DNA of 58,373 bases from Promethearchaeota archaeon (GTDB lineage: Archaea; Asgardarchaeota; Lokiarchaeia; Sigyniarchaeales; SOKP01): positions 1-58,373 of the forward strand of contig JBHLNL010000006.1 in the NCBI GenBank assembly GCA_048941605.1. The letters run 5' to 3'. Shown in pieces: positions 1 through 47,311 of the stretch (position 1 is its first letter; the number at the start of each line of letters is the position of its first letter). The position numbers were made by a program, and so were the translations under genes. Under the pieces are notes generated by a model. The model was not told the DNA's origin. It worked only from the letters and a program-made list of their open reading frames with translations, and ran no database searches.

Positions 1-2084
1 AACTTATAACTTGTTTAAGATGTAGGGCTTTAAGGCAATATATATATCATCCAGAACTTTTAAAATATCCTTTAAAGAGAGATGGTCCAAAAGGATCTGG
101 TAAATTCAAACGAATTTCATGGGATGATGCATTAACTGAAGTTGCTGAAAAACTTAAAGAAGTTAAAGGAAAATATGGAAATTCAAGTATCTTTTTAGTC
201 ATGGGTGGTGGTTATCAGGGTGCTTATCATGATGGGATGTTTGCGATGATGAGGCTTTTAACTCAATTTGGGGGATACTCAACTCATTATGGCAATGTTT
301 CTTCAGAAGGAGCGGTCTATGCAACCCAAACTCAATATACATCCCCTTTTGTTGGGCATAGTCGTACCGATTTATTAAATTCTAAGTTGATTATTATGTG
401 GGGGTGGGATCCTGCTAGAATGATCTCTGGTACAGATACAATATTTAATTTAATTAAAGCTAAAGAAAAAGGAATTAAAATAATTTGTATTGACCCTAGA
501 TACACTGACTCTGCTGTTGTTTTAGCTGATCAATGGATCCCTATAATACCTGGAACTGACACAGCAATGATGGTTGCTATAGCTTACGTTATGATAAAAG
601 AAAATCTTCATGATCAAAAATTTTTAGATAAATATACTGTAGGATTTGAGAAATTCAAAGAATATGTTATAGGCAAAGAAGATGGAATACCTAAAACCCC
701 CGAATGGGCAGAGAACATTACTTCTGTGCCAGCAGAAACAATTGTTAATCTTGCTCGTGAGTATGCAAAAGCAAAACCTGCTGCATTGATGGATTGTCAA
801 GGTCCTGCGCGAAGTGCCGTAGGAGAACTATATAATAGATGTGCTATGACTTTAACTGCTATGACTGGAAATGTAGGTAAACATGGTGGAAGTGCTGCTG
901 GAGGATTAATGGGAATTCCTTATGGTCATATGTTTTTTGCATCTAGGATACCTCCTCCTTACAGAAATCCAGTTGAAACAGGATTGAAGTCAGTTCGAGG
1001 TTCTTTAGATTTACAACTTAGATTTCAAGCAAGATGCCATATAAATAAAATATTTGATGCTATATTAAAAGGAAAAGAGGGAGGATATCCATTTGATGTT
1101 AAATTTGCATGGTTTGTGAACAACAACTTTTTAAACCAATTAGGAAATGCTAATAAATCTGCAGAAGCTTTGAAAAAGCTAGACTACATGGTTATAGCTG
1201 ATTTATGGCTTACACCAACAGCAAGATATGCTGATATAATTCTTCCTGTAACTACCATAGCTGAGAAAAGTGATTTAGTAAGACCTTGGCCTTCTGGACC
1301 TTACTTTTTATATGCAAACCAAGCCATTGAACCTATTGGAGAATGCAAGTCTGATTTAAGAATCGCTGAAGAATTAGCAGATAAGCTTGGATTAGAAGAA
1401 TTTGAAAAATTTCCAGATGAGGAAAAAGCATTAAAATTTTTAATAAAATTAAGAGAAGACACTAGAAAAAACATACGAGATATAAACAAATTTAGACAAG
1501 ATGGGATACATCGTCTTAAACTCGAAGGACCTTATGTAGCATTTAAAGAGCAAATTGAAAATATTGAGAATAAACCATTTGATACTCCTTCGGGTAAGAT
1601 CGAGATTTTTTCTCAAAGGATTGCCAATTTAAATGATCCCGAAAATCCTCCAATTCCCAAGTACATGGAAAGATGGGAAGGGCGATATGATCCCTTAAAT
1701 AAAAAATACCCAATACAATTGATATCACCACATCCTAAAAATAGGGTTCATTCAGAATTATATTTAGTTAAATGGCTTAAAGAGGTTGAACCTCATGTTG
1801 CATGGATTAATCCTATTGATGCTGAGGCAAGAGGAATAAAAAATGGAGATGAAATTCTAGTATTCAATGATAGAGGAAAACTCAAAATTAAAGCATGGTT
1901 AACAGAAAGAATAATTCCAGGAGTAATTAGTATTTTTGAAGGAGCTTGGTATGATCCGGATGAAAATGGAATCGATCGAGGTGGATGTGTCAATACTTTA
2001 ACAAAAGATGCATATTCTCCTGGAGGAGCATCTGCTTTAAAATCATGTCTAGTAGAATTTAAAAAATTTAAAGGAGGAACCTAA
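1..2084 (+). CDS. Molybdopterin (bis-MGD) oxidoreductase catalytic subunit, DMSO-reductase family; 5' end cut by the window edge
   Basis: The frame of ORF 201..2084 stays open back to nt 3 (..CLRCRALRQYIYHPELLKYPLKRDG..ISWDDALTEVAEKLKEVKGKYG..), so the true start lies upstream of the window. The protein is long with a MopB-like layout and a C-terminal dinucleotide-binding barrel (INPIDAEARGIKNGDEILVFNDRGKLKIKAWLTERIIPGVISI). A DmsB-type ferredoxin gene follows 1 nt later. Confidence 0.85.
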   Translation, partial: LITCLRCRALRQYIYHPELLKYPLKRDGPKGSGKFKRISWDDALTEVAEKLKEVKGKYGNSSIFLVMGGGYQGAYHDGMFAMMRLLTQFGGYSTHYGNVSSEGAVYATQTQYTSPFVGHSRTDLLNSKLIIMWGWDPARMISGTDTIFNLIKAKEKGIKIICIDPRYTDSAVVLADQWIPIIPGTDTAMMVAIAYVMIKENLHDQKFLDKYTVGFEKFKEYVIGKEDGIPKTPEWAENITSVPAETIVNLAREYAKAKPAALMDCQGPARSAVGELYNRCAMTLTAMTGNVGKHGGSAAGGLMGIPYGHMFFASRIPPPYRNPVETGLKSVRGSLDLQLRFQARCHINKIFDAILKGKEGGYPFDVKFAWFVNNNFLNQLGNANKSAEALKKLDYMVIADLWLTPTARYADIILPVTTIAEKSDLVRPWPSGPYFLYANQAIEPIGECKSDLRIAEELADKLGLEEFEKFPDEEKALKFLIKLREDTRKNIRDINKFRQDGIHRLKLEGPYVAFKEQIENIENKPFDTPSGKIEIFSQRIANLNDPENPPIPKYMERWEGRYDPLNKKYPIQLISPHPKNRVHSELYLVKWLKEVEPHVAWINPIDAEARGIKNGDEILVFNDRGKLKIKAWLTERIIPGVISIFEGAWYDPDENGIDRGGCVNTLTKDAYSPGGASALKSCLVEFKKFKGGT

Positions 2085-13269: not shown

Positions 13270-13797
13270 GTGAGCAATAGGCAAAAAAATGAAATCATTA
13301 TTGAAAAATTCGAAAATTCTTTAGATATTCTAAATACAATGTTAATGAATATGATTCAATTAAAAACCGGTGCTAGAATCGGGATGTCGGTCTCTATTGA
13401 TTTGACTCGAGAAACTTCTAAATTATTTACCGATAGGATTAACAAATTACATTATATTTTAGATAAGCATAGAGAAACTTTAAGTGAGAAAATAGTAGAG
13501 AAAATTGGAAAATACTTTGATATGGTTGCGCCATCTGGACTTCTGAGTTCTGAAGAATTCTTAAAATCAGATATTGCTTTAAATATATTAAAAGAATTTA
13601 TTCATAAGTATAATCGTGCTTCAAGCTGTTTTACTCACATATCTCTTACCATAAAACAATTAACTGATATTTTAAATCTTGAAGGTAATTATAAAAATCC
13701 TCAAATAATAAAGGATAAGAAATATCTGGAAGCCCTTTTAAAATTAATGATCATAATTTCAAAACCTCGAAAAGGGATTTACGATTTCTTCTCCTGA
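13270..13797 (+). CDS. Hypothetical protein
   Basis: 175 aa from GTG 13270. The frame is open from 13171. ATA 13195 lies 6 nt after a GAGGGGA Shine-Dalgarno, so the real start may be 13195. The gene ends in TGA. Confidence 0.5.
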   Translation: MSNRQKNEIIIEKFENSLDILNTMLMNMIQLKTGARIGMSVSIDLTRETSKLFTDRINKLHYILDKHRETLSEKIVEKIGKYFDMVAPSGLLSSEEFLKSDIALNILKEFIHKYNRASSCFTHISLTIKQLTDILNLEGNYKNPQIIKDKKYLEALLKLMIIISKPRKGIYDFFS

Positions 13798-13944
13798 TTA
13801 AATTTTAATAATTTAAAGAGCTTACCCAAGAATTTGATATGTTTAAGTTCATTATCAAGATTTACTTTTTTTGGTAATAATCTAACTTCTATTCCCGATT
13901 ACATTAAAGAAATGAAGGATAAAGGAGTAAAGATATATTACTAA
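13798..13944 (+). pseudogene. Leucine-rich-repeat-like coding remnant, in frame behind the TGA of the preceding ORF
   Basis: 48 open codons read LNFNNLKSLPKNLICLSSLSRFTFFGNNLTSIPDYIKEMKDKGVKIYY. They contain two LxxLxxNxL(T/K)S(I/L)P LRR units. Confidence 0.3.
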
Positions 13945-37037: not shown

Positions 37038-37244
37038 TTATTGAGTTAATCTAAATAGTTTGCTTTCTTCAATGTCATTTTCTTCTTTACAATGAGGGCA
37101 AATCCAAGTAGTATCATTTTTCTTAACAGAATTTATGCAATCATGGCATACAGCAATGTCACATATACAATAATGGGTGTTTTCCATATGATTTTCACAG
37201 CTATTTCCACAAATATAACAAATAGGAGGTGTTCTTTCTGACAT
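37038..37244 (-). CDS. Small Cys/His-rich zinc-finger protein (cross-brace RING/PHD-like spacing)
   Basis: 68 aa with ligand pattern C9-x2-C12 ... C26-x-C28 ... C33-H34-x-C36 ... C49-x2-C52. Confidence 0.55.
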   Translation of the reverse strand: MSERTPPICYICGNSCENHMENTHYCICDIAVCHDCINSVKKNDTTWICPHCKEENDIEESKLFRLTQ

Positions 37245-37939: not shown

Positions 37940-38629
37940 TTATAGTAGGTTCGCAAAGATACTAAAGCCGCCAATCCATAAACAAAGACCTTGAACAAAA
38001 CAGAAAACTACAATAACAAAAGCAATTGGGGGCCAACTGAGAAATTTTGATATCTTTTGAAGTGTACCAATATAAAACTTCGCAGTAAGACCAACTATTA
38101 ATGTTACAATAATAAATATAACCACGAGTACCCATTTTACTATTGTAGTTCCCAGTAAATTTGCAACAGAATCCGGTATAATTAATGCTACGATAAACGC
38201 TGTAGCAGTTCCAGCTAGAAGCCCTAATATGCTAGAGAGAGGCAAATCCGAAATAGGTTTGAAGAACATGGCAATTCCGATAATAATCAAGAAGACACAT
38301 GTGAAATGGTTAGCTTCGTTTGCAGTAACATCGCGATATTGAAAACTTGGAGGTATGTCCAATATTAATCCCATTACTCCACTCCATATGACAAATATAC
38401 CTAGAATCAATCCCAAATATGACATCCCGCGTAAAAATTTAGTAACATCAAACTTTTCTACTTCAGTTTTCCTTTTGGTAAAAGAACCCCTTCTTTTTCT
38501 TTCATAGCCTAGCCAAGTAATAGCCATTGCGCCACTCAGAACCATCATTATTGCTGCTGATTCAGAAACCCAATTAAAAAATCCACTTATAATGTCCCAA
38601 TATTCTAATTGAAATATTATTTTATTCAC
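37940..38629 (-). CDS. Integral membrane protein, hypothetical
   Basis: 229 aa with ~6 hydrophobic helices. Confidence 0.6.
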   Translation of the reverse strand: MNKIIFQLEYWDIISGFFNWVSESAAIMMVLSGAMAITWLGYERKRRGSFTKRKTEVEKFDVTKFLRGMSYLGLILGIFVIWSGVMGLILDIPPSFQYRDVTANEANHFTCVFLIIIGIAMFFKPISDLPLSSILGLLAGTATAFIVALIIPDSVANLLGTTIVKWVLVVIFIIVTLIVGLTAKFYIGTLQKISKFLSWPPIAFVIVVFCFVQGLCLWIGGFSIFANLL

Positions 38630-38772
38630 CTTTTTGAAATTACTGATTTTAAATATATTGTAAAACTATGTTTTTAAAAATTTATGTTAAACTTGCTTTA
38701 GAACTATAATAGCAATATATTTATTTTCTAAATTGTTCCTTTATCTAAAAAACTCATAATATTTATGAAACT

Positions 38773-38946
38773 ATGTCAGAGTGGAAAAATAAATTAGACA
38801 ATGAATTTGATGAATTTGATTATACTGAATCTAACTGTACTGGTTGAAGTATTATAGATGGTTTCATAGCATGCATAAAAGGTATAAAAAAAAGACATCA
38901 AAAAAGAAAACAAGCAAAACTTAAATTAAAAAATCTCAAGGAGTAG
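38773..38946 (+). CDS. Candidate small selenoprotein (57 codons, in-frame TGA at 38845-38847, motif C-T-G-U)
   Basis: The reading is MSEWKNKLDNEFDEFDYTESNCTG-TGA-SIIDGFIACIKGIKKRHQKRKQAKLKLKNLKE-TAG. 32 codons remain open after the TGA. A paralog with the same architecture starts at 39158. Confidence 0.35.
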
Positions 38947-38951
38947 ATTTG

Positions 38952-39005
38952 AAAACGCTAGGATCTACACCTATGAATTCCGTTAAGATTTCGAGATTAA
39001 ATTTA
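38952..39005 (+). other. Conserved 3'-flank element A (hairpin GAATTC-CGTTAA-GATTTC); candidate SECIS-like or terminator structure
   Basis: Blocks AAAAYGYTAGGATYT..GAATTC..AAGA..TTC.GAGAT..AAATT are shared with 39323-39375. Confidence 0.35.
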
Positions 39006-39157
39006 AAAATTATTATAATTTTTATCAGAGATTAGAATTGCCCTGTAAACTCTTATAATTAATTATTATACGCATCTGAGTTTTTATTTTTTATAAACAC
39101 CACTCTTTTATCTTTTACTTGTTTTAAAACATGTAGAATAAAGGAGGTTATTAAATA

Positions 39158-39295
39158 ATGGAAGAACAAGATGACTATCTAGACATAGAGTTTGATGATG
39201 ATTGTTATAGTACTAGTTGAGGAATGCTCAATATGTGGTATCGACGAGCTGAAAAACTTAGAAAACTAAGAGAACAAGCAAATCAAAATAAATAA
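39158..39295 (+). CDS. Candidate small selenoprotein paralog (45 codons, in-frame TGA at 39218-39220)
   Basis: AAGGAGG lies 10 nt upstream. The reading is MEEQDDYLDIEFDDDCYSTS-TGA-GMLNMWYRRAEKLRKLREQANQNK-TAA. The architecture matches 38773: acidic LDxEFD head, then Cys/Ser/Thr, TGA, a hydrophobic stretch and a basic tail. Confidence 0.35.
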
Positions 39296-39322
39296 TCTAA
39301 AATTCTCAATAAATTAAACCAT

Positions 39323-39375
39323 AAAATGTTAGGATTTAATTTTGAATTCGGCAAGAATTCCGAGATATAAATTAT
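39323..39375 (+). other. Conserved 3'-flank element B (hairpin GAATTC-GGCAA-GAATTC)
   Basis: It aligns block-wise with 38952-39005. The lower stem ATTT/AGAT corresponds to ATCT/AGAT in element A. Confidence 0.35.
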
Positions 39376-39396
39376 AACTACAAAATTTTCTATTTT

Positions 39397-40755
39397 TTAA
39401 GGTTTTCCGGGACCTTCTCCTACTTTTCGATAAATAAATCCTTTTCCTTCTATTAATTTTTTGTTAAAAATATTTCTACCGTCAATAATAATTGGTGTTC
39501 TTACTTTCTTTTTTAATTCGTCAAGATCAATATTATAATATTCTTTATGATTTGTAGTAAACATAAGAACATCAGCTCCAGACACAGCTTTATTGAAATC
39601 ATCGGTTAATTCCGTTTTATGATAATCTCTCTCTTTAACGTAAGGATCATGTGCTAGAAAAGATATATTATGAGAGTGATATCTACTTTTTAATATATTA
39701 ACAATATTTTCAGTTGGCGTGTTCCTTGTATCATCTGTATTCGCTTTATATGAAACGCCTAAGAGAACAATCTTCACATTATCAACTAATTTACGAGATT
39801 CTCTGAATACATCTTCCATTAGTTCAACCATATGTCCTGGCATAGAATCATTTAATTCTCTTGCTTTTAATAATATGTCTGAATTAAATTTATGGTTTGT
39901 ATATGTACGATGCCCATAGACAAGCAGGTGGGGATCTTTTGTTAGACAATGACCACCAACTCCAGATCCCGGATAATGCATCATTCTATCATGTCTATGA
40001 TTGATCAATTCGATGATCTCAAATATATTTCTATCGAAATCCTCACATAACAGAGCCATTTCATTAGCAAAAGCGATATTTACATCTCTATATGTATTTT
40101 CTATACATTTTGTTAATTCCGCTGTAAGTGTATCTGTTATGTGTAAATCTTTTTTTACTACTTTCTCATACAGAAACCTAGCTCTATTGTTAGCTTCATC
40201 ACATCCTCCCCCAATCACTCTTTCCATATCGGTTATATACTCTAGCATTTTACCAGGCATAACACGTTCAAACGAAAATACCAGATAAAAATCTTCTCCC
40301 CTCTTTAAACCGCTTCCTTCTTCTAATTCCCTTTTAACAATATTATTTGTTGTTCCTGGGGCTACAGTAGATTCAATTATTACAGTTACCCCTTTCTTCA
40401 TATGTCTTGAAACTTTTCGAGAGACTTCAATTAAAGATTCATATCTAGGAATTTTAGAATCTAAATCAACTGGAGTTTGAACATCAATAAGAATAAAATC
40501 TGCTTTATTAACATCATCATATTTGTCTGTGACTTTAAACTTTCCATTCTTTACTACTCTCGCTATTAGCTCATCTAAACCAGGTTCTTCTCCCTCAAAT
40601 GGACTTTTTCCCTGATTTAACCAGTCAATCTTCCAACCAGATCTTTTGGACCTACGCTGAATCCCCGTAACATAAAAATCATCAACATCTGCAAGTAGCG
40701 CTGCCATAGGGATACCTACATAACCCATTCCAATAACAATAATATTAGTAGACAT
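39397..40755 (-). CDS. Nucleotide-sugar 6-dehydrogenase (UDP-N-acetyl-D-mannosamine / UDP-glucose dehydrogenase family)
   Basis: 452 aa. The N-terminal Rossmann motif is IIVIGMGYVGIPMAA. The catalytic region is GSGVGGHCLTKDP. A C-terminal UDP-binding domain is present. Confidence 0.85.
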   Translation of the reverse strand: MSTNIIVIGMGYVGIPMAALLADVDDFYVTGIQRRSKRSGWKIDWLNQGKSPFEGEEPGLDELIARVVKNGKFKVTDKYDDVNKADFILIDVQTPVDLDSKIPRYESLIEVSRKVSRHMKKGVTVIIESTVAPGTTNNIVKRELEEGSGLKRGEDFYLVFSFERVMPGKMLEYITDMERVIGGGCDEANNRARFLYEKVVKKDLHITDTLTAELTKCIENTYRDVNIAFANEMALLCEDFDRNIFEIIELINHRHDRMMHYPGSGVGGHCLTKDPHLLVYGHRTYTNHKFNSDILLKARELNDSMPGHMVELMEDVFRESRKLVDNVKIVLLGVSYKANTDDTRNTPTENIVNILKSRYHSHNISFLAHDPYVKERDYHKTELTDDFNKAVSGADVLMFTTNHKEYYNIDLDELKKKVRTPIIIDGRNIFNKKLIEGKGFIYRKVGEGPGKP

Positions 40756-46582: not shown

Positions 46583-47311
46583 TTGGCAGATTTTCATACA
46601 AAAACTTTTTATGGTCAAAAGAAAAGCGTTAGAATTACAAGTCCATCAAAACAAGTTCCTTATATTTTTTTAAGTTGTATAAGTAGAAAAGACAATGGAT
46701 CTTGGGAAAAACCATCCGAAGGAGAGGGAAAAACGGTAAGATTATCAATTGAGGAAATAATATGTATCTTAGAGGTTCTTTACAGAAGGAGTGCCAACTG
46801 GAGAGGTTATCATGTTTTTAAAGAACGTAAAACCGATATTTATGTAGGTTGGGAGGATGAATCGCGCCAGGTTTTGCAAATTAAAATTGGAGAATATACT
46901 AAAAAACTTCGATTTCCAAATATAAATTTCATGACTATGATGTTAAATCATATCTTAGAGGAAAAAATTGAATTTGCAACAAGTGGTACGTTTGAAACCA
47001 AAACAGTAGAAGCAGCAGAGATGGATGAAGAAGCTGAATACGGAGTTTTTTCAGAACACATAACAGCTAGAGACGGATTACATATAGTTGAAACTACAGA
47101 ATATAGTACCTCAAGAGACACATCGGAAATTGACGCATTAATCAAAGTGGAGAGTCCAAAAGCTTTACTTATTACTTTAGATTCTGGAGAGGAGTTTTGG
47201 ATACCAAAAAGTACTATTCACAACGACTATGATGTGAGTGAAAAAAAGGAGTCTCAAAAATTTCTTGTAGATAAATGGATAATTGAAAAATATAAGATTT
47301 TAGGAAAATAA
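46583..47311 (+). CDS. Hypothetical protein (242 aa)
   Basis: Open frame with a TTG start in the track. It has an acidic central linker and a C-terminal KALLITLDSGEEFWIPKSTI module. No family was assigned. Confidence 0.5.
   Translation: MADFHTKTFYGQKKSVRITSPSKQVPYIFLSCISRKDNGSWEKPSEGEGKTVRLSIEEIICILEVLYRRSANWRGYHVFKERKTDIYVGWEDESRQVLQIKIGEYTKKLRFPNINFMTMMLNHILEEKIEFATSGTFETKTVEAAEMDEEAEYGVFSEHITARDGLHIVETTEYSTSRDTSEIDALIKVESPKALLITLDSGEEFWIPKSTIHNDYDVSEKKESQKFLVDKWIIEKYKILGK

Follow-up and report, generated by a model that had tools for sequence, protein, structure and literature searches.

Two paired Lokiarchaeal micro-ORFs with an in-frame UGA very probably read as selenocysteine, and a conserved three-helix RNA element at the end of each

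A stretch of 58,373 nucleotides from a Promethearchaeota archaeon (assembly GCA_048941605.1, contig JBHLNL010000006.1, positions 1 to 58,373), hereafter the window, contains an apparently empty spacer of about 0.75 kb that in fact holds two very small plus-strand genes, each interrupted by a single in-frame TGA and each ending in a structured RNA element. The features of this region are as follows.

38715..38753 (+), candidate archaeal promoter of ORF A, with two conserved AT-rich boxes, ATATATTTATTT (-58 to -47) and TTTATCTAAAAAAC (-33 to -20).
38773..38946 (+), ORF A, a 57-codon putative micro-selenoprotein gene encoding MSEWKNKLDNEFDEFDYTESNCTG-U-SIIDGFIACIKGIKKRHQKRKQAKLKLKNLKE, with stop codon TAG at 38944-38946.
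38836..38847 (+), the C-T-G-U motif of A, with Cys codon TGT at 38836-38838 and the inferred Sec codon TGA at 38845-38847.
38931..39000 (+), SECIS-like three-way junction of A: P0, 38932-38937 paired with 38993-38998; P1, 38939-38949 paired with 38962-38972, apical loop 38950-38961; P2, 38975-38980 paired with 38987-38992.
39020..39024 (+), T-run after the A element, a candidate archaeal termination signal inferred from sequence only.
39141..39147 (+), Shine-Dalgarno-like AAGGAGG, 10 nt upstream of the ORF B start codon.
39158..39295 (+), ORF B, a 45-codon putative micro-selenoprotein gene encoding MEEQDDYLDIEFDDDCYSTS-U-GMLNMWYRRAEKLRKLREQANQNK.
39203..39220 (+), the C-x4-U motif of B (C-Y-S-T-S-U), with Cys codon TGT at 39203-39205 and the inferred Sec codon TGA at 39218-39220.
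39301..39369 (+), SECIS-like three-way junction of B: P0, 39302-39308 paired with 39361-39367, although only four base pairs form in this copy; P1, 39310-39320 paired with 39333-39343, apical loop AUAAAAUGUUAG at 39321-39332; P2, 39344-39349 paired with 39355-39360, loop GGCAA.
39391..39396 (+), T-run after the B element, directly abutting the stop codon of a convergent UDP-sugar dehydrogenase gene (39397-40755, minus strand).

The two ORFs were first pointed out in an initial annotation made from sequence alone, and that observation is confirmed: the frame stays open for 32 codons after the TGA in A and for 24 codons in B, and the two units align over their whole length. No other copy exists in the window, as judged by an nhmmer search. 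Within the window alone, however, the evidence against chance is modest, as the joint probability of the two open runs, calculated from the composition of the spacer, is about 0.003, and 3.4% of all TGA codons in the six frames have at least 20 open codons before and at least 24 after. The decisive evidence is therefore comparative. The boxes upstream of A are conserved in 54 distinct loci and their position implies a leaderless or very short-leader mRNA, although the promoter function is inferred and was not assayed, while at the place of the Shine-Dalgarno-like sequence of B a GGT-containing purine-rich motif is found in the other loci.

ORF A and ORF B recur as a neighboring pair in 15 Lokiarchaeal (Promethearchaeota) genomes and more than 50 metagenome contigs. 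All loci come from one fairly narrow Lokiarchaeal clade, with neighboring proteins 54-97% identical, mostly 75-95%, and the pair persists when either neighbor is missing. Conservation downstream of the TGA had been named in advance as a test of recoding, and several lines of evidence show that both sides of the UGA evolve as one reading frame. Firstly, in the main tally the TGA is kept at the same codon in all 64 copies of A and in 64 of 69 copies of B, the other five carrying TGT, and the frame relation across the UGA is invariant in more than 120 copies. Secondly, there are no in-frame stops in 1583 + 1501 downstream codons, as compared to 125-199 in each other frame, and downstream pN/pS is 0.44 for A and 0.33 for B. 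Additionally, substitutions next to the TGA fall at third codon positions, the third position is the most variable in three of the four segments tested, indels come in multiples of three, and the protein sequences are conserved. The Cys and the UGA are invariant in an alignment of A (A10), with variants CGFSU and CxxTGU occurring in distant homologs, and the Cys of B is likewise invariant.

The search for homologs with Cys in place of Sec, also proposed beforehand, was positive for B, where TGT or TGC occupies the site in three lineages: CYY[TI]S-C (loci L013, L016 and L035-37 and protein records P0133 and P0140, the DNA of P0140 not having been examined), CYQTS-C (protein record P0143) and CYETN-C (protein record P0146). 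The latter two lineages lie outside the main tally. In contrast, no Cys homolog of A was found among 5.8 billion proteins, which is unusual for a selenoprotein family.

The 3' elements constitute a conserved, covarying RNA three-way junction of roughly 69 nt. RNAalifold finds P1 unaided, with 6 of 10 pairs compensatory, and single-sequence minimum-free-energy folds give the same junction. In the separate A and B alignments, 92-93% of cells are paired, against 22-59% when partners are slid. Over 105 distinct copies, 23 of 24 pairs show double changes, amounting to 277 cells as compared to 79.5 ± 7.7 in shuffles (0 of 500 as high) and at most 46 when slid, although this large count was made on an alignment fitted to the model. 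The covariance model scores 34.7 bits for the A element and 78.8 bits for the B element of the window. The initial annotation had described an upper stem GAAUUC/GAWUUC of 6 bp, which is real and corresponds to helix P2, but its proposed lower stem AUYU/AGAU with an internal loop is not supported: AUCU belongs to P1, an 11-bp hairpin that starts upstream and, in ORF A, contains the stop codon, while AGAU belongs to the closing helix P0. The elements are therefore larger than the spans originally given (38952-39005 and 39323-39375). In A, the last four sense codons and the stop codon lie inside the 5' strands of P0 and P1.

Whether these elements behave as more than plain terminators had likewise been posed as a test, and their distribution ties them to the UGA. 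In 471 kb, the covariance model hits only behind A and behind Sec-type B. No element is present behind B in the CYYTSC and CYQTSC lineages, while in the CYETNC lineage a recognizable but weakened element persists, scoring 33.8 bits against 44-48 in Sec relatives and with a changed P2 loop. In two loci, L041 and L070, A and B abut and share one element. The spacing from the UGA to the start of the element is 82-95 nt for A and 76-92 nt for B, and the element starts 16 nt before to 15 nt after the end of the stop codon.

Comparison with the published Lokiarchaeal SECIS (lokiSECIS, Mariotti et al. 2016, PMC4989117; Asgard eSECIS-like type I model, Huang et al. 2024, PMC11227280) reveals both shared and divergent features. 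Both lie in the 3' region directly after the gene. P1 has a stem of 10-11 bp, with 94.6% of cells paired, which falls within the 7-15 bp of the published upper stem (9 bp in Lokiarchaeota), and its apical loop of 11-12 nt falls within the published 8-20 nt (11 in Lokiarchaeota), a loop that is A-rich at its 5' side and has G as the last base, usually preceded by A. In P1, the AAA and the terminal G are each present in 105 of 105 copies and the preceding A in 102 of 105, giving the signature RWWAAA…UAG. The genuine frhD SECIS elements retrieved for comparison have loops AUAAAAUAUGG, GUAAACCCGAG and AUAAACCAUAG on 9-bp stems, to be compared with P1 loops such as AUAAAAUGUUAG. Furthermore, as L041 and L070 suggest for the present element, the lokiSECIS can serve two adjacent UGA genes (hdrA-frhD in the literature). 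The defining core, (A/G)UGA immediately 5' of the upper stem and (G/A)A immediately 3' of it, is however absent: the flanking positions are AAGG/CCU in A and AAAG/UUU in B, and they covary as Watson-Crick pairs (column pair 14-47 reads GC 61, AU 36; column pair 13-49 reads AU 24, GC 24, UA 17). For the same reason, kink-turn readings of the junction were rejected. Two additional conserved helices, P2 (loop YGCAA) and P0, make the three-way junction, the A element overlaps the last codons of its ORF, and the covariance model of the new element does not hit the frhD SECIS elements (best 12.5 bits). A loose scan for AUGA-stem-loop-GA returned 115 hits in 264 kb, mostly noise in AT-rich DNA, whereas a strict version recovered the genuine frhD elements but found nothing on the coding strand near A or B; a hairpin at 38757-38721 is on the wrong strand and overlaps the promoter of A, and was rejected as a SECIS.

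The element fails defining features of every published SECIS model. It also lacks the defining feature of the euryarchaeal SECIS, a GAA_A asymmetric bulge between a lower stem and a short G/C upper stem. The GAA of GAAUUC is base-paired in P2 and covaries, B-type copies have GAGUUC or AAGUUC instead, and no single A bulge follows. Bacterial SECIS elements lie inside the ORF, about 11 nt after the UGA; the A element overlaps coding sequence as well, but the present elements start 76-95 nt after the UGA, are mostly untranslated and differ in structure. No Rfam family reached its gathering score in the window, and a relaxed search (E up to 10) of 38600-39420 returned no SECIS family, only four chance-level hits to KRAS_3UTR, SNORD102, CRISPR-DR45 and ppoRNA.

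The presence of Sec machinery, another point on which the initial annotation had staked its proposal, is supported indirectly. A close relative (bin132) is a documented selenocysteine user. A closely related complete genome that carries the pair (locus L003, CP070805.1 = GCA_020343655.1) is listed in the supplement of PMC11227280 with Sec-containing SelD (two entries), HdrA (two entries), FrhD and Prx-like proteins; more broadly, 85.9% of Lokiarchaeia/Helarchaeales use Sec. No tRNA gene, and hence no tRNA-Sec, was found in the window or in 15 loci, and no Sec-machinery gene appeared among the 17 ORFs of the window scanned against Pfam, the rest of the source genome not having been searched. 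Likewise, no in-frame TGA gene in the window convincingly resembles a known selenoprotein, and the molybdopterin oxidoreductase at the window start continues upstream without a TGA.

Neither protein, at 43-57 residues, matches Pfam or PDB sequences or contains a recognizable thioredoxin-like or enzyme domain. They share with the known Asgard selenoprotein families (SelD, FrhA/VhuU, HdrA, FrhD/VhuD, Prx-like, AhpF-N-like, DsbA-like) their occurrence in the same clade, an in-frame UGA, a nearby Cys typical of redox motifs and, for B, Cys-containing homologs, but they are not among the families listed in PMC11227280 or PMC13188914, surveys that were based on homology to known families and would have missed them. 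Small eukaryotic CxxU selenoproteins (SelW/SelT/SelH, the Rdx family) are similar in their small size and in having a Cys two residues before the Sec, as in the CTGU of A, although this relation was not tested. Rdx proteins, however, have a thioredoxin-like fold of about 85-120 residues, for which A and B are too short; no sequence similarity was found, and an AlphaFold model of B predicts a single long helix at moderate confidence, which offered no functional lead, no fold search having been run. The resemblance between A and B noted at the outset is weak at the protein level: a profile-profile comparison gave only 7% probability, although Sec aligns with Sec, such that protein-level paralogy is not established, whereas homology of the two 3' elements is.

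Of the four checks proposed in the initial annotation, three were run in some form and all three came out in favor, while the fourth, 75Se labelling or proteomics, was not done. Taken together, these data support the main interpretation put forward in the initial annotation, and we hold with high confidence that ORF A and ORF B are two small protein-coding genes, each translated as one polypeptide, of 57 and 45 residues, respectively, whose UGA is decoded as selenocysteine. Our analysis demonstrates coding continuity across the UGA, the exchange of Sec and Cys codons in B, the RNA structure and its association with the UGA genes; that the inserted residue is Sec and that the element is the SECIS are inferences, as neither selenium in the products nor the recoding activity of the element was assayed. 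In this view, recoding would be directed by the three-way junction, in which P1, with its loop R-W-W-A-A-A-U-G-N-U-A-G, corresponds to the upper stem and apical loop of the known Lokiarchaeal SECIS while the AUGA/GA core is replaced by ordinary base pairs plus P2 and P0. The element would be intact while the ribosome reads the UGA, and in A would be unwound only when the ribosome reaches the last codons. The products would have an acidic N-terminal part, an invariant Cys 2-4 residues before the Sec, and a hydrophobic-then-basic helix. Their function is unknown, and a role as Cys/Sec redox micro-proteins is no more than a guess.

Of the alternatives, the one that survives best, though it appears unlikely, is programmed readthrough without selenocysteine, in which the UGA is read by a near-cognate standard tRNA such as Trp, Cys or Arg and the 3' structure stimulates readthrough or regulates the ratio of short to long product. 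The absence of the canonical SECIS core is consistent with such a mechanism, and the failure to find a Cys homolog of A would fit a requirement for a stop codon as such, giving two isoforms. Arguing against it are the match of the P1 loop to the lokiSECIS signature, the specific exchange of the UGA with Cys codons in three B lineages, the invariant Cys 2-4 residues upstream, as in Cys/Sec redox motifs, and the documented use of Sec in the clade; moreover, known readthrough stimulators normally sit immediately 3' of the stop codon, not about 85 nt away.

Less likely still is the possibility, raised as an alternative in the initial annotation, that the UGA is a true stop, the functional products being acidic Cys/Ser/Thr-rich peptides of 24 and 20 residues, for example RiPP precursors, with the conserved downstream frame a separate cistron translated by reinitiation. 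Many B copies do have an in-frame ATG one or two codons after the UGA (54 of 56 have a start-type codon within six codons), and public gene calls exist for both halves separately (protein records P0148 and P0149). However, 49 of 58 distinct A copies have no ATG, GTG or TTG in the six codons after the UGA, and the Cys-containing B forms are continuous single ORFs. The neighbors of the window copy that were scanned against Pfam are a membrane protein without a family, a UDP-sugar dehydrogenase and a rhomboid, with no RiPP-type enzyme among them, and the two immediate neighbors are each dispensable. The RiPP alternative is thus not supported.

That UGA is a sense codon in this organism (genetic code 4 or 25), as assumed by the gene callers of the Logan and ENA assemblies whose public protein records give W at the position, is a remote possibility, since the window is densely covered by long ORFs under the standard code, four ORFs of at least 150 residues end in TGA, ORF A of locus L012 itself terminates at TGA, Trp is encoded by TGG inside both ORFs, and no other in-frame TGA joining two long ORF halves that resemble a known protein was seen. 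Equally remote is a non-coding RNA, for example a C/D-box sRNA overlapping ORF B, with incidental ORFs, for which the only support is the weak SNORD102 hit at 39189-39258, containing UGAUGA and CUGA motifs, whose 21.1 bits (E = 1.5) are far below the gathering threshold of 47 in a region that evolves as codons.

A review of May 2026 counts only 11 selenoprotein families in archaea (PMC13188914), and Asgard selenoproteomes have been charted by homology to known families (PMC11227280), an approach that cannot see proteins of 45-57 residues that ordinary gene callers cut at the UGA. Two more families, conserved as a pair across a Lokiarchaeal clade, would show that the Asgard selenoproteome is under-counted. 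The RNA element matters more, as it keeps the apical hairpin of the Lokiarchaeal SECIS but replaces the eukaryote-like AUGA/GA core with a three-way junction, amounting to a natural mutagenesis experiment on which part of the SECIS is read by the still unknown Asgard SECIS-recognition factor; this makes the question directly testable, and the question feeds into the debate on the archaeal origin of the eukaryotic Sec system. It is somewhat more likely than not that these are the first micro-selenoproteins of archaea, one of which (A) appears to be obligately Sec-containing, and that their three-way junction is a new class of SECIS that works without the AUGA/GA quartet. If so, the Asgard Sec-insertion machinery reads the apical AAA…AG loop rather than a kink-turn core, which bears directly on how the eukaryotic SECIS arose, and the covariance model could be used to find further unannotated selenoprotein genes. 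The finding also exposes an annotation artifact, in that public databases hold these proteins only as code-4 mistranslations with Trp at the Sec position.

The spacer in which the two reading frames reside lies between two genes encoded on the minus strand, and on its plus strand holds both of the ORFs described in the initial annotation, as follows:

37940-38629, minus strand: gene encoding a 229-residue membrane protein with no Pfam family
38630-39396: the spacer
38773-38946, plus strand: ORF A
38845-38847, plus strand: in-frame TGA of ORF A
39158-39295, plus strand: ORF B
39218-39220, plus strand: in-frame TGA of ORF B
39397-40755, minus strand: gene of the UDP-glucose/GDP-mannose dehydrogenase family

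The observation itself is confirmed. The two units align along their whole length, and no further copy exists in the 58-kb window. The window is approximately 30% G+C and densely coding under the standard code, with ORFs of at least 150 residues ending in TAA 32 times, TAG 7 times and TGA 4 times, so that UGA is an ordinary, rare stop codon here. From composition alone the two open runs following the TGA codons have a joint probability of about 0.003, and 3.4% of all TGA codons in the six frames have comparably open flanks; the window by itself is therefore suggestive, not decisive.

Comparative data were obtained from several sources. An identical 1.7-kb Logan contig and a 92%-identical ENA contig (L002; loci carrying the unit are designated L, and public protein records P) contain the pair, and in each case the TGA had been translated as Trp, genetic code 4 having been applied to short contigs. 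More generally, public protein collections contain A and B only as 45-57-residue products with Trp at the UGA (L001, L002, L078-L080; P0001, P0002, P0123-P0139), a consequence of gene calling with code 4 on short AT-rich contigs, while on longer contigs the genes are not called at all. When the window is compared with L002, the differences just after the TGA of A are all synonymous third-position changes in the same frame (AGT/AGC, ATT/ATC, ATA/ATC). A scan of one genome per species found 15 loci, all in Lokiarchaeal/Promethearchaeota MAGs and one complete chromosome, CP070805.1, while a metagenome scan with a B-protein profile found 53 more, and further loci were reached through protein records. 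Neighboring proteins are 54-97% identical to those of the window, mostly 75-95%, and all genome loci therefore belong to one Lokiarchaeal clade, whatever their NCBI labels say. Specifically, contigs labeled Thorarchaeota, Hermodarchaeota, Hodarchaeota and Odinarchaeota (L007, L011, L016, L017) are syntenic over the whole locus with the Promethearchaeota (Loki) loci and encode proteins 54-94% identical to the window's, suggesting that the phylum labels of these MAGs are wrong or that the bins are contaminated.

A and B are adjacent almost everywhere, with B usually 215-380 nt downstream of A, and the pair persists where either flanking gene is missing: L003, the locus on CP070805.1, lacks the dehydrogenase, while L013 and L016 lack the membrane protein. 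Departures from this arrangement exist. In the lineage represented by L025 (2073-2800; also L026 and L027) A and B are about 950 nt apart, and the inserted DNA has no long plus-strand ORF, the minus strand not having been examined. In L044 an extra complete A copy with its element is found on the opposite strand (131-330, minus strand), while on the plus strand (540-760) an A-like copy without an ATG, reading …CKS-TGA-NMADGF…, is followed by an element, which suggests local duplication or inversion of the unit.

Conservation beyond the TGA had been named in advance as a test of the selenoprotein reading, and the homologs display it in frame. All 64 A copies have TGA at the same codon, while B has TGA in 64 copies and TGT in 5. 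The family consensus for A is MSEWKNK-(variable, often acidic)-C-T-G-U-G-I-[IV]-D-G-x-I-…-KKR-(basic tail), and that for B is M-(acidic)-D-[YF]-[LF]-D-[LIF]-[EG]-F-D-D-[DEN]-C-Y-x-T-[ST]-U-x-[ML]-[LI]-x-M-W-Y-x-R-A-x-K-L-(charged tail). The Cys is invariant in both, with distant A variants reading CGFSU, CTVTGU or CAGTGU. Downstream of the UGA no in-frame stop is found in 1583 (A) and 1501 (B) codons of distinct sequences, against 125-199 stops in each alternative frame, and downstream pN/pS is 0.44 for A and 0.33 for B. In addition, 49 of 58 distinct A copies have no ATG, GTG or TTG within six codons after the UGA, which argues against reinitiation.

Similarly, the existence of homologs with Cys in place of Sec, likewise proposed beforehand as a criterion, was borne out for B, in which a Cys codon replaces the UGA in three sequence-distinct lineages: …CYY[TI]S-C-SLINMWH… (L013, L016, L035-37, P0133, P0140), …CYQTS-C-ALIKMWY… (P0143; L081/L082) and …CYETN-C-SSFTMWY… (P0146; L083/L084). 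For A, a word-indexed search of 5.8 billion proteins returned only the two code-4 mistranslations and no Cys form, although a Cys form of 50-57 residues would be long enough for gene callers to report.

Nucleotides such as AATCTCAAGGAGTAG are conserved even in loci where ORF A stops earlier, which points to a constraint at the level of RNA. The element concerned is a three-way junction composed of P0 (6-7 bp, AAUCUC(A)/(U)GAGAUU), P1 (10-11 bp with an 11-12-nt loop) and P2 (6 bp, GARUUC/GAAYUC, with loop YGCAA or CGNRAA), and in the window it occupies two positions:

38931-39000: element of A
39301-39369: element of B

Several analyses support this structure. RNAalifold applied to a naive alignment recovers P1, with 6 of 10 pairs compensatory, and in separate MAFFT alignments 92.6% (B-type) and 91.9% (A-type) of cells are paired, against 22-59% when partners are slid, while single sequences fold into the same junction. 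On a covariance-model alignment of 105 distinct copies, which was fitted to the model and so leans towards the structure, 93.2% of cells pair and 23 of 24 pairs show double changes, amounting to 277 cells against 79.5 ± 7.7 in shuffles (0 of 500 as high) and at most 46 in slid controls. Of the two stems proposed in the initial annotation, the upper one is P2, while the lower one is not supported.

The distribution of the element follows that of the UGA. Across 471 kb of DNA the covariance model hits only directly behind A and behind Sec-type B, apart from weak antisense echoes of the same sites. The element starts 16 nt before to 15 nt after the end of the stop codon, and its start lies 82-95 nt (A) or 76-92 nt (B) after the UGA. 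No element follows B in the CYYTSC lineage (five loci) or the CYQTSC lineage. In contrast, the CYETNC lineage, whose Cys-containing B reads …CYETNCSSFTMWY…, keeps a recognizable but weakened copy (L083 1642-1711; L084 226-295), scoring 33.8 bits against 44-48 in its Sec-type relatives, with the otherwise near-invariant P2 loop (YGCAA) changed to AUGCC; this could be a recent Sec-to-Cys change caught before the element decayed, or a sign that the element has a second role. In two loci (L041 2834-3213; L070 524-903) A and B are only about 30 nt apart and share a single element behind B, which starts 165 nt after the end of A's stop codon. This looks like a bicistronic arrangement with a shared SECIS-like element, and mirrors the shared SECIS described for hdrA-frhD.

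Comparison with archaeal and Lokiarchaeal SECIS models, a further test set out at the start, gave a divided result. Published Lokiarchaeal SECIS elements consist of AUGA, a 9-bp stem, an 11-nt loop (A-rich at its start and ending in G usually preceded by A) and then GA/AA (PMC4989117), while a looser Asgard model is also available (PMC11227280). Genuine examples were retrieved from behind frhD in Lokiarchaeal contigs, and read:

AUGA-AUCUUCCAA-AUAAAAUAUGG-UUGGAUGAU-GA
AUGA-UCCUCUCAA-GUAAACCCGAG-UUGGGAGGA-AA
AUGA-ACUUUUCAA-AUAAACCAUAGUGG-UUGAAAAGC-AA

The P1 loop of the new element reads R-W-W-A-A-A-U-G-N-U-A-G, with AAA and the final G invariant in 105 of 105 copies and the preceding A present in 102 of 105; stem length and loop signature therefore match. 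The core does not match, as the positions that would be AUGA and GA are ordinary pairs that covary (GC/AU/UA) and the strand continues into P2 and P0. The element does not fit the euryarchaeal GAA_A model either, the new covariance model does not detect the frhD SECIS elements, and searches of Rfam returned nothing. The element is therefore regarded as working like a SECIS and sharing the apical hairpin of the lokiSECIS, but not as a member of the published structural classes. Two other motifs of related appearance were seen in the window. A perfect hairpin flanked by AUGA and AA at 38721-38757 (minus strand), which gives a weak KRAS_3UTR hit in Rfam, lies on the strand opposite to ORF A and overlaps the conserved candidate promoter box of A, and was judged not to be a SECIS for A; any role upstream of the divergent membrane-protein gene was not examined. 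An AUGA, 9-bp stem, 19-nt A-rich loop and GA motif at 47229-47271 (also L005 20116-20158 and L006 17765-17807) is conserved at the 3' end of ORF 46583-47311, encoding a 242-residue protein with no Pfam family, and may simply reflect coding conservation.

The presence of Sec machinery or tRNA-Sec in the genome had also been singled out as a point on which the interpretation could fail, and here the evidence, which concerns Sec use, comes from a relative. CP070805.1, which carries L003 with A 72% and B 80% identical to the window's, is assembly GCA_020343655.1 (PMC10833476), and that assembly appears with Sec-containing ('_U') SelD ×2, HdrA ×2, FrhD and Prx-like entries in the supplement of PMC11227280. 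The window's own genome was searched only within the 58 kb, which holds no tRNA and no recognizable Sec gene among the ORFs scanned. Of the Lokiarchaeia/Helarchaeales, 85.9% are reported to use Sec (PMC11227280).

Neither protein matches Pfam or PDB sequences. AlphaFold, supplied with an 18-sequence alignment, predicts B as one helix spanning residues 10-44, with a mean pLDDT of 74. Both proteins have an acidic N-terminal part, a Cys-x(2-4)-Sec motif, and then a hydrophobic-then-basic segment. Profile-profile similarity between A and B is weak (7% probability), though it aligns Sec with Sec; common descent of the coding parts is therefore plausible but unproven, whereas the two 3' elements are clearly homologous. 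It is tentatively suggested, with low confidence and by inference from the motif only, that A and B are selenylsulfide-forming redox micro-proteins, possibly acting as a pair.

Taken together, these data establish a real feature and support the proposal that A and B are selenoproteins, with the RNA model corrected; selenium incorporation was not measured directly. Selenoproteins and SECIS elements are already described in Asgard archaea; A and B are very small proteins, and their element lacks the SECIS core. The Asgard selenoproteome survey lists seven families and a May 2026 review counts 11 archaeal families, none of which is a micro-protein, and full-text searches found no description of these genes or of a core-less Asgard SECIS.

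Two further features of the window were recorded in the course of the analysis. At 13270-13944, ORF 13270-13797 ends in TGA and is followed in frame by 48 open codons that look like leucine-rich repeats (…LKSLPKNLICLSSLSRFTFFGNNLTSIP…). At 37038-37244 (minus strand), a 68-residue Cys-rich protein gives weak RING/zinc-finger Pfam hits (zf-RING_4, E = 3e-4, below the cut-off) and is conserved at 70-91% identity in the 12 related genome loci that extend that far.
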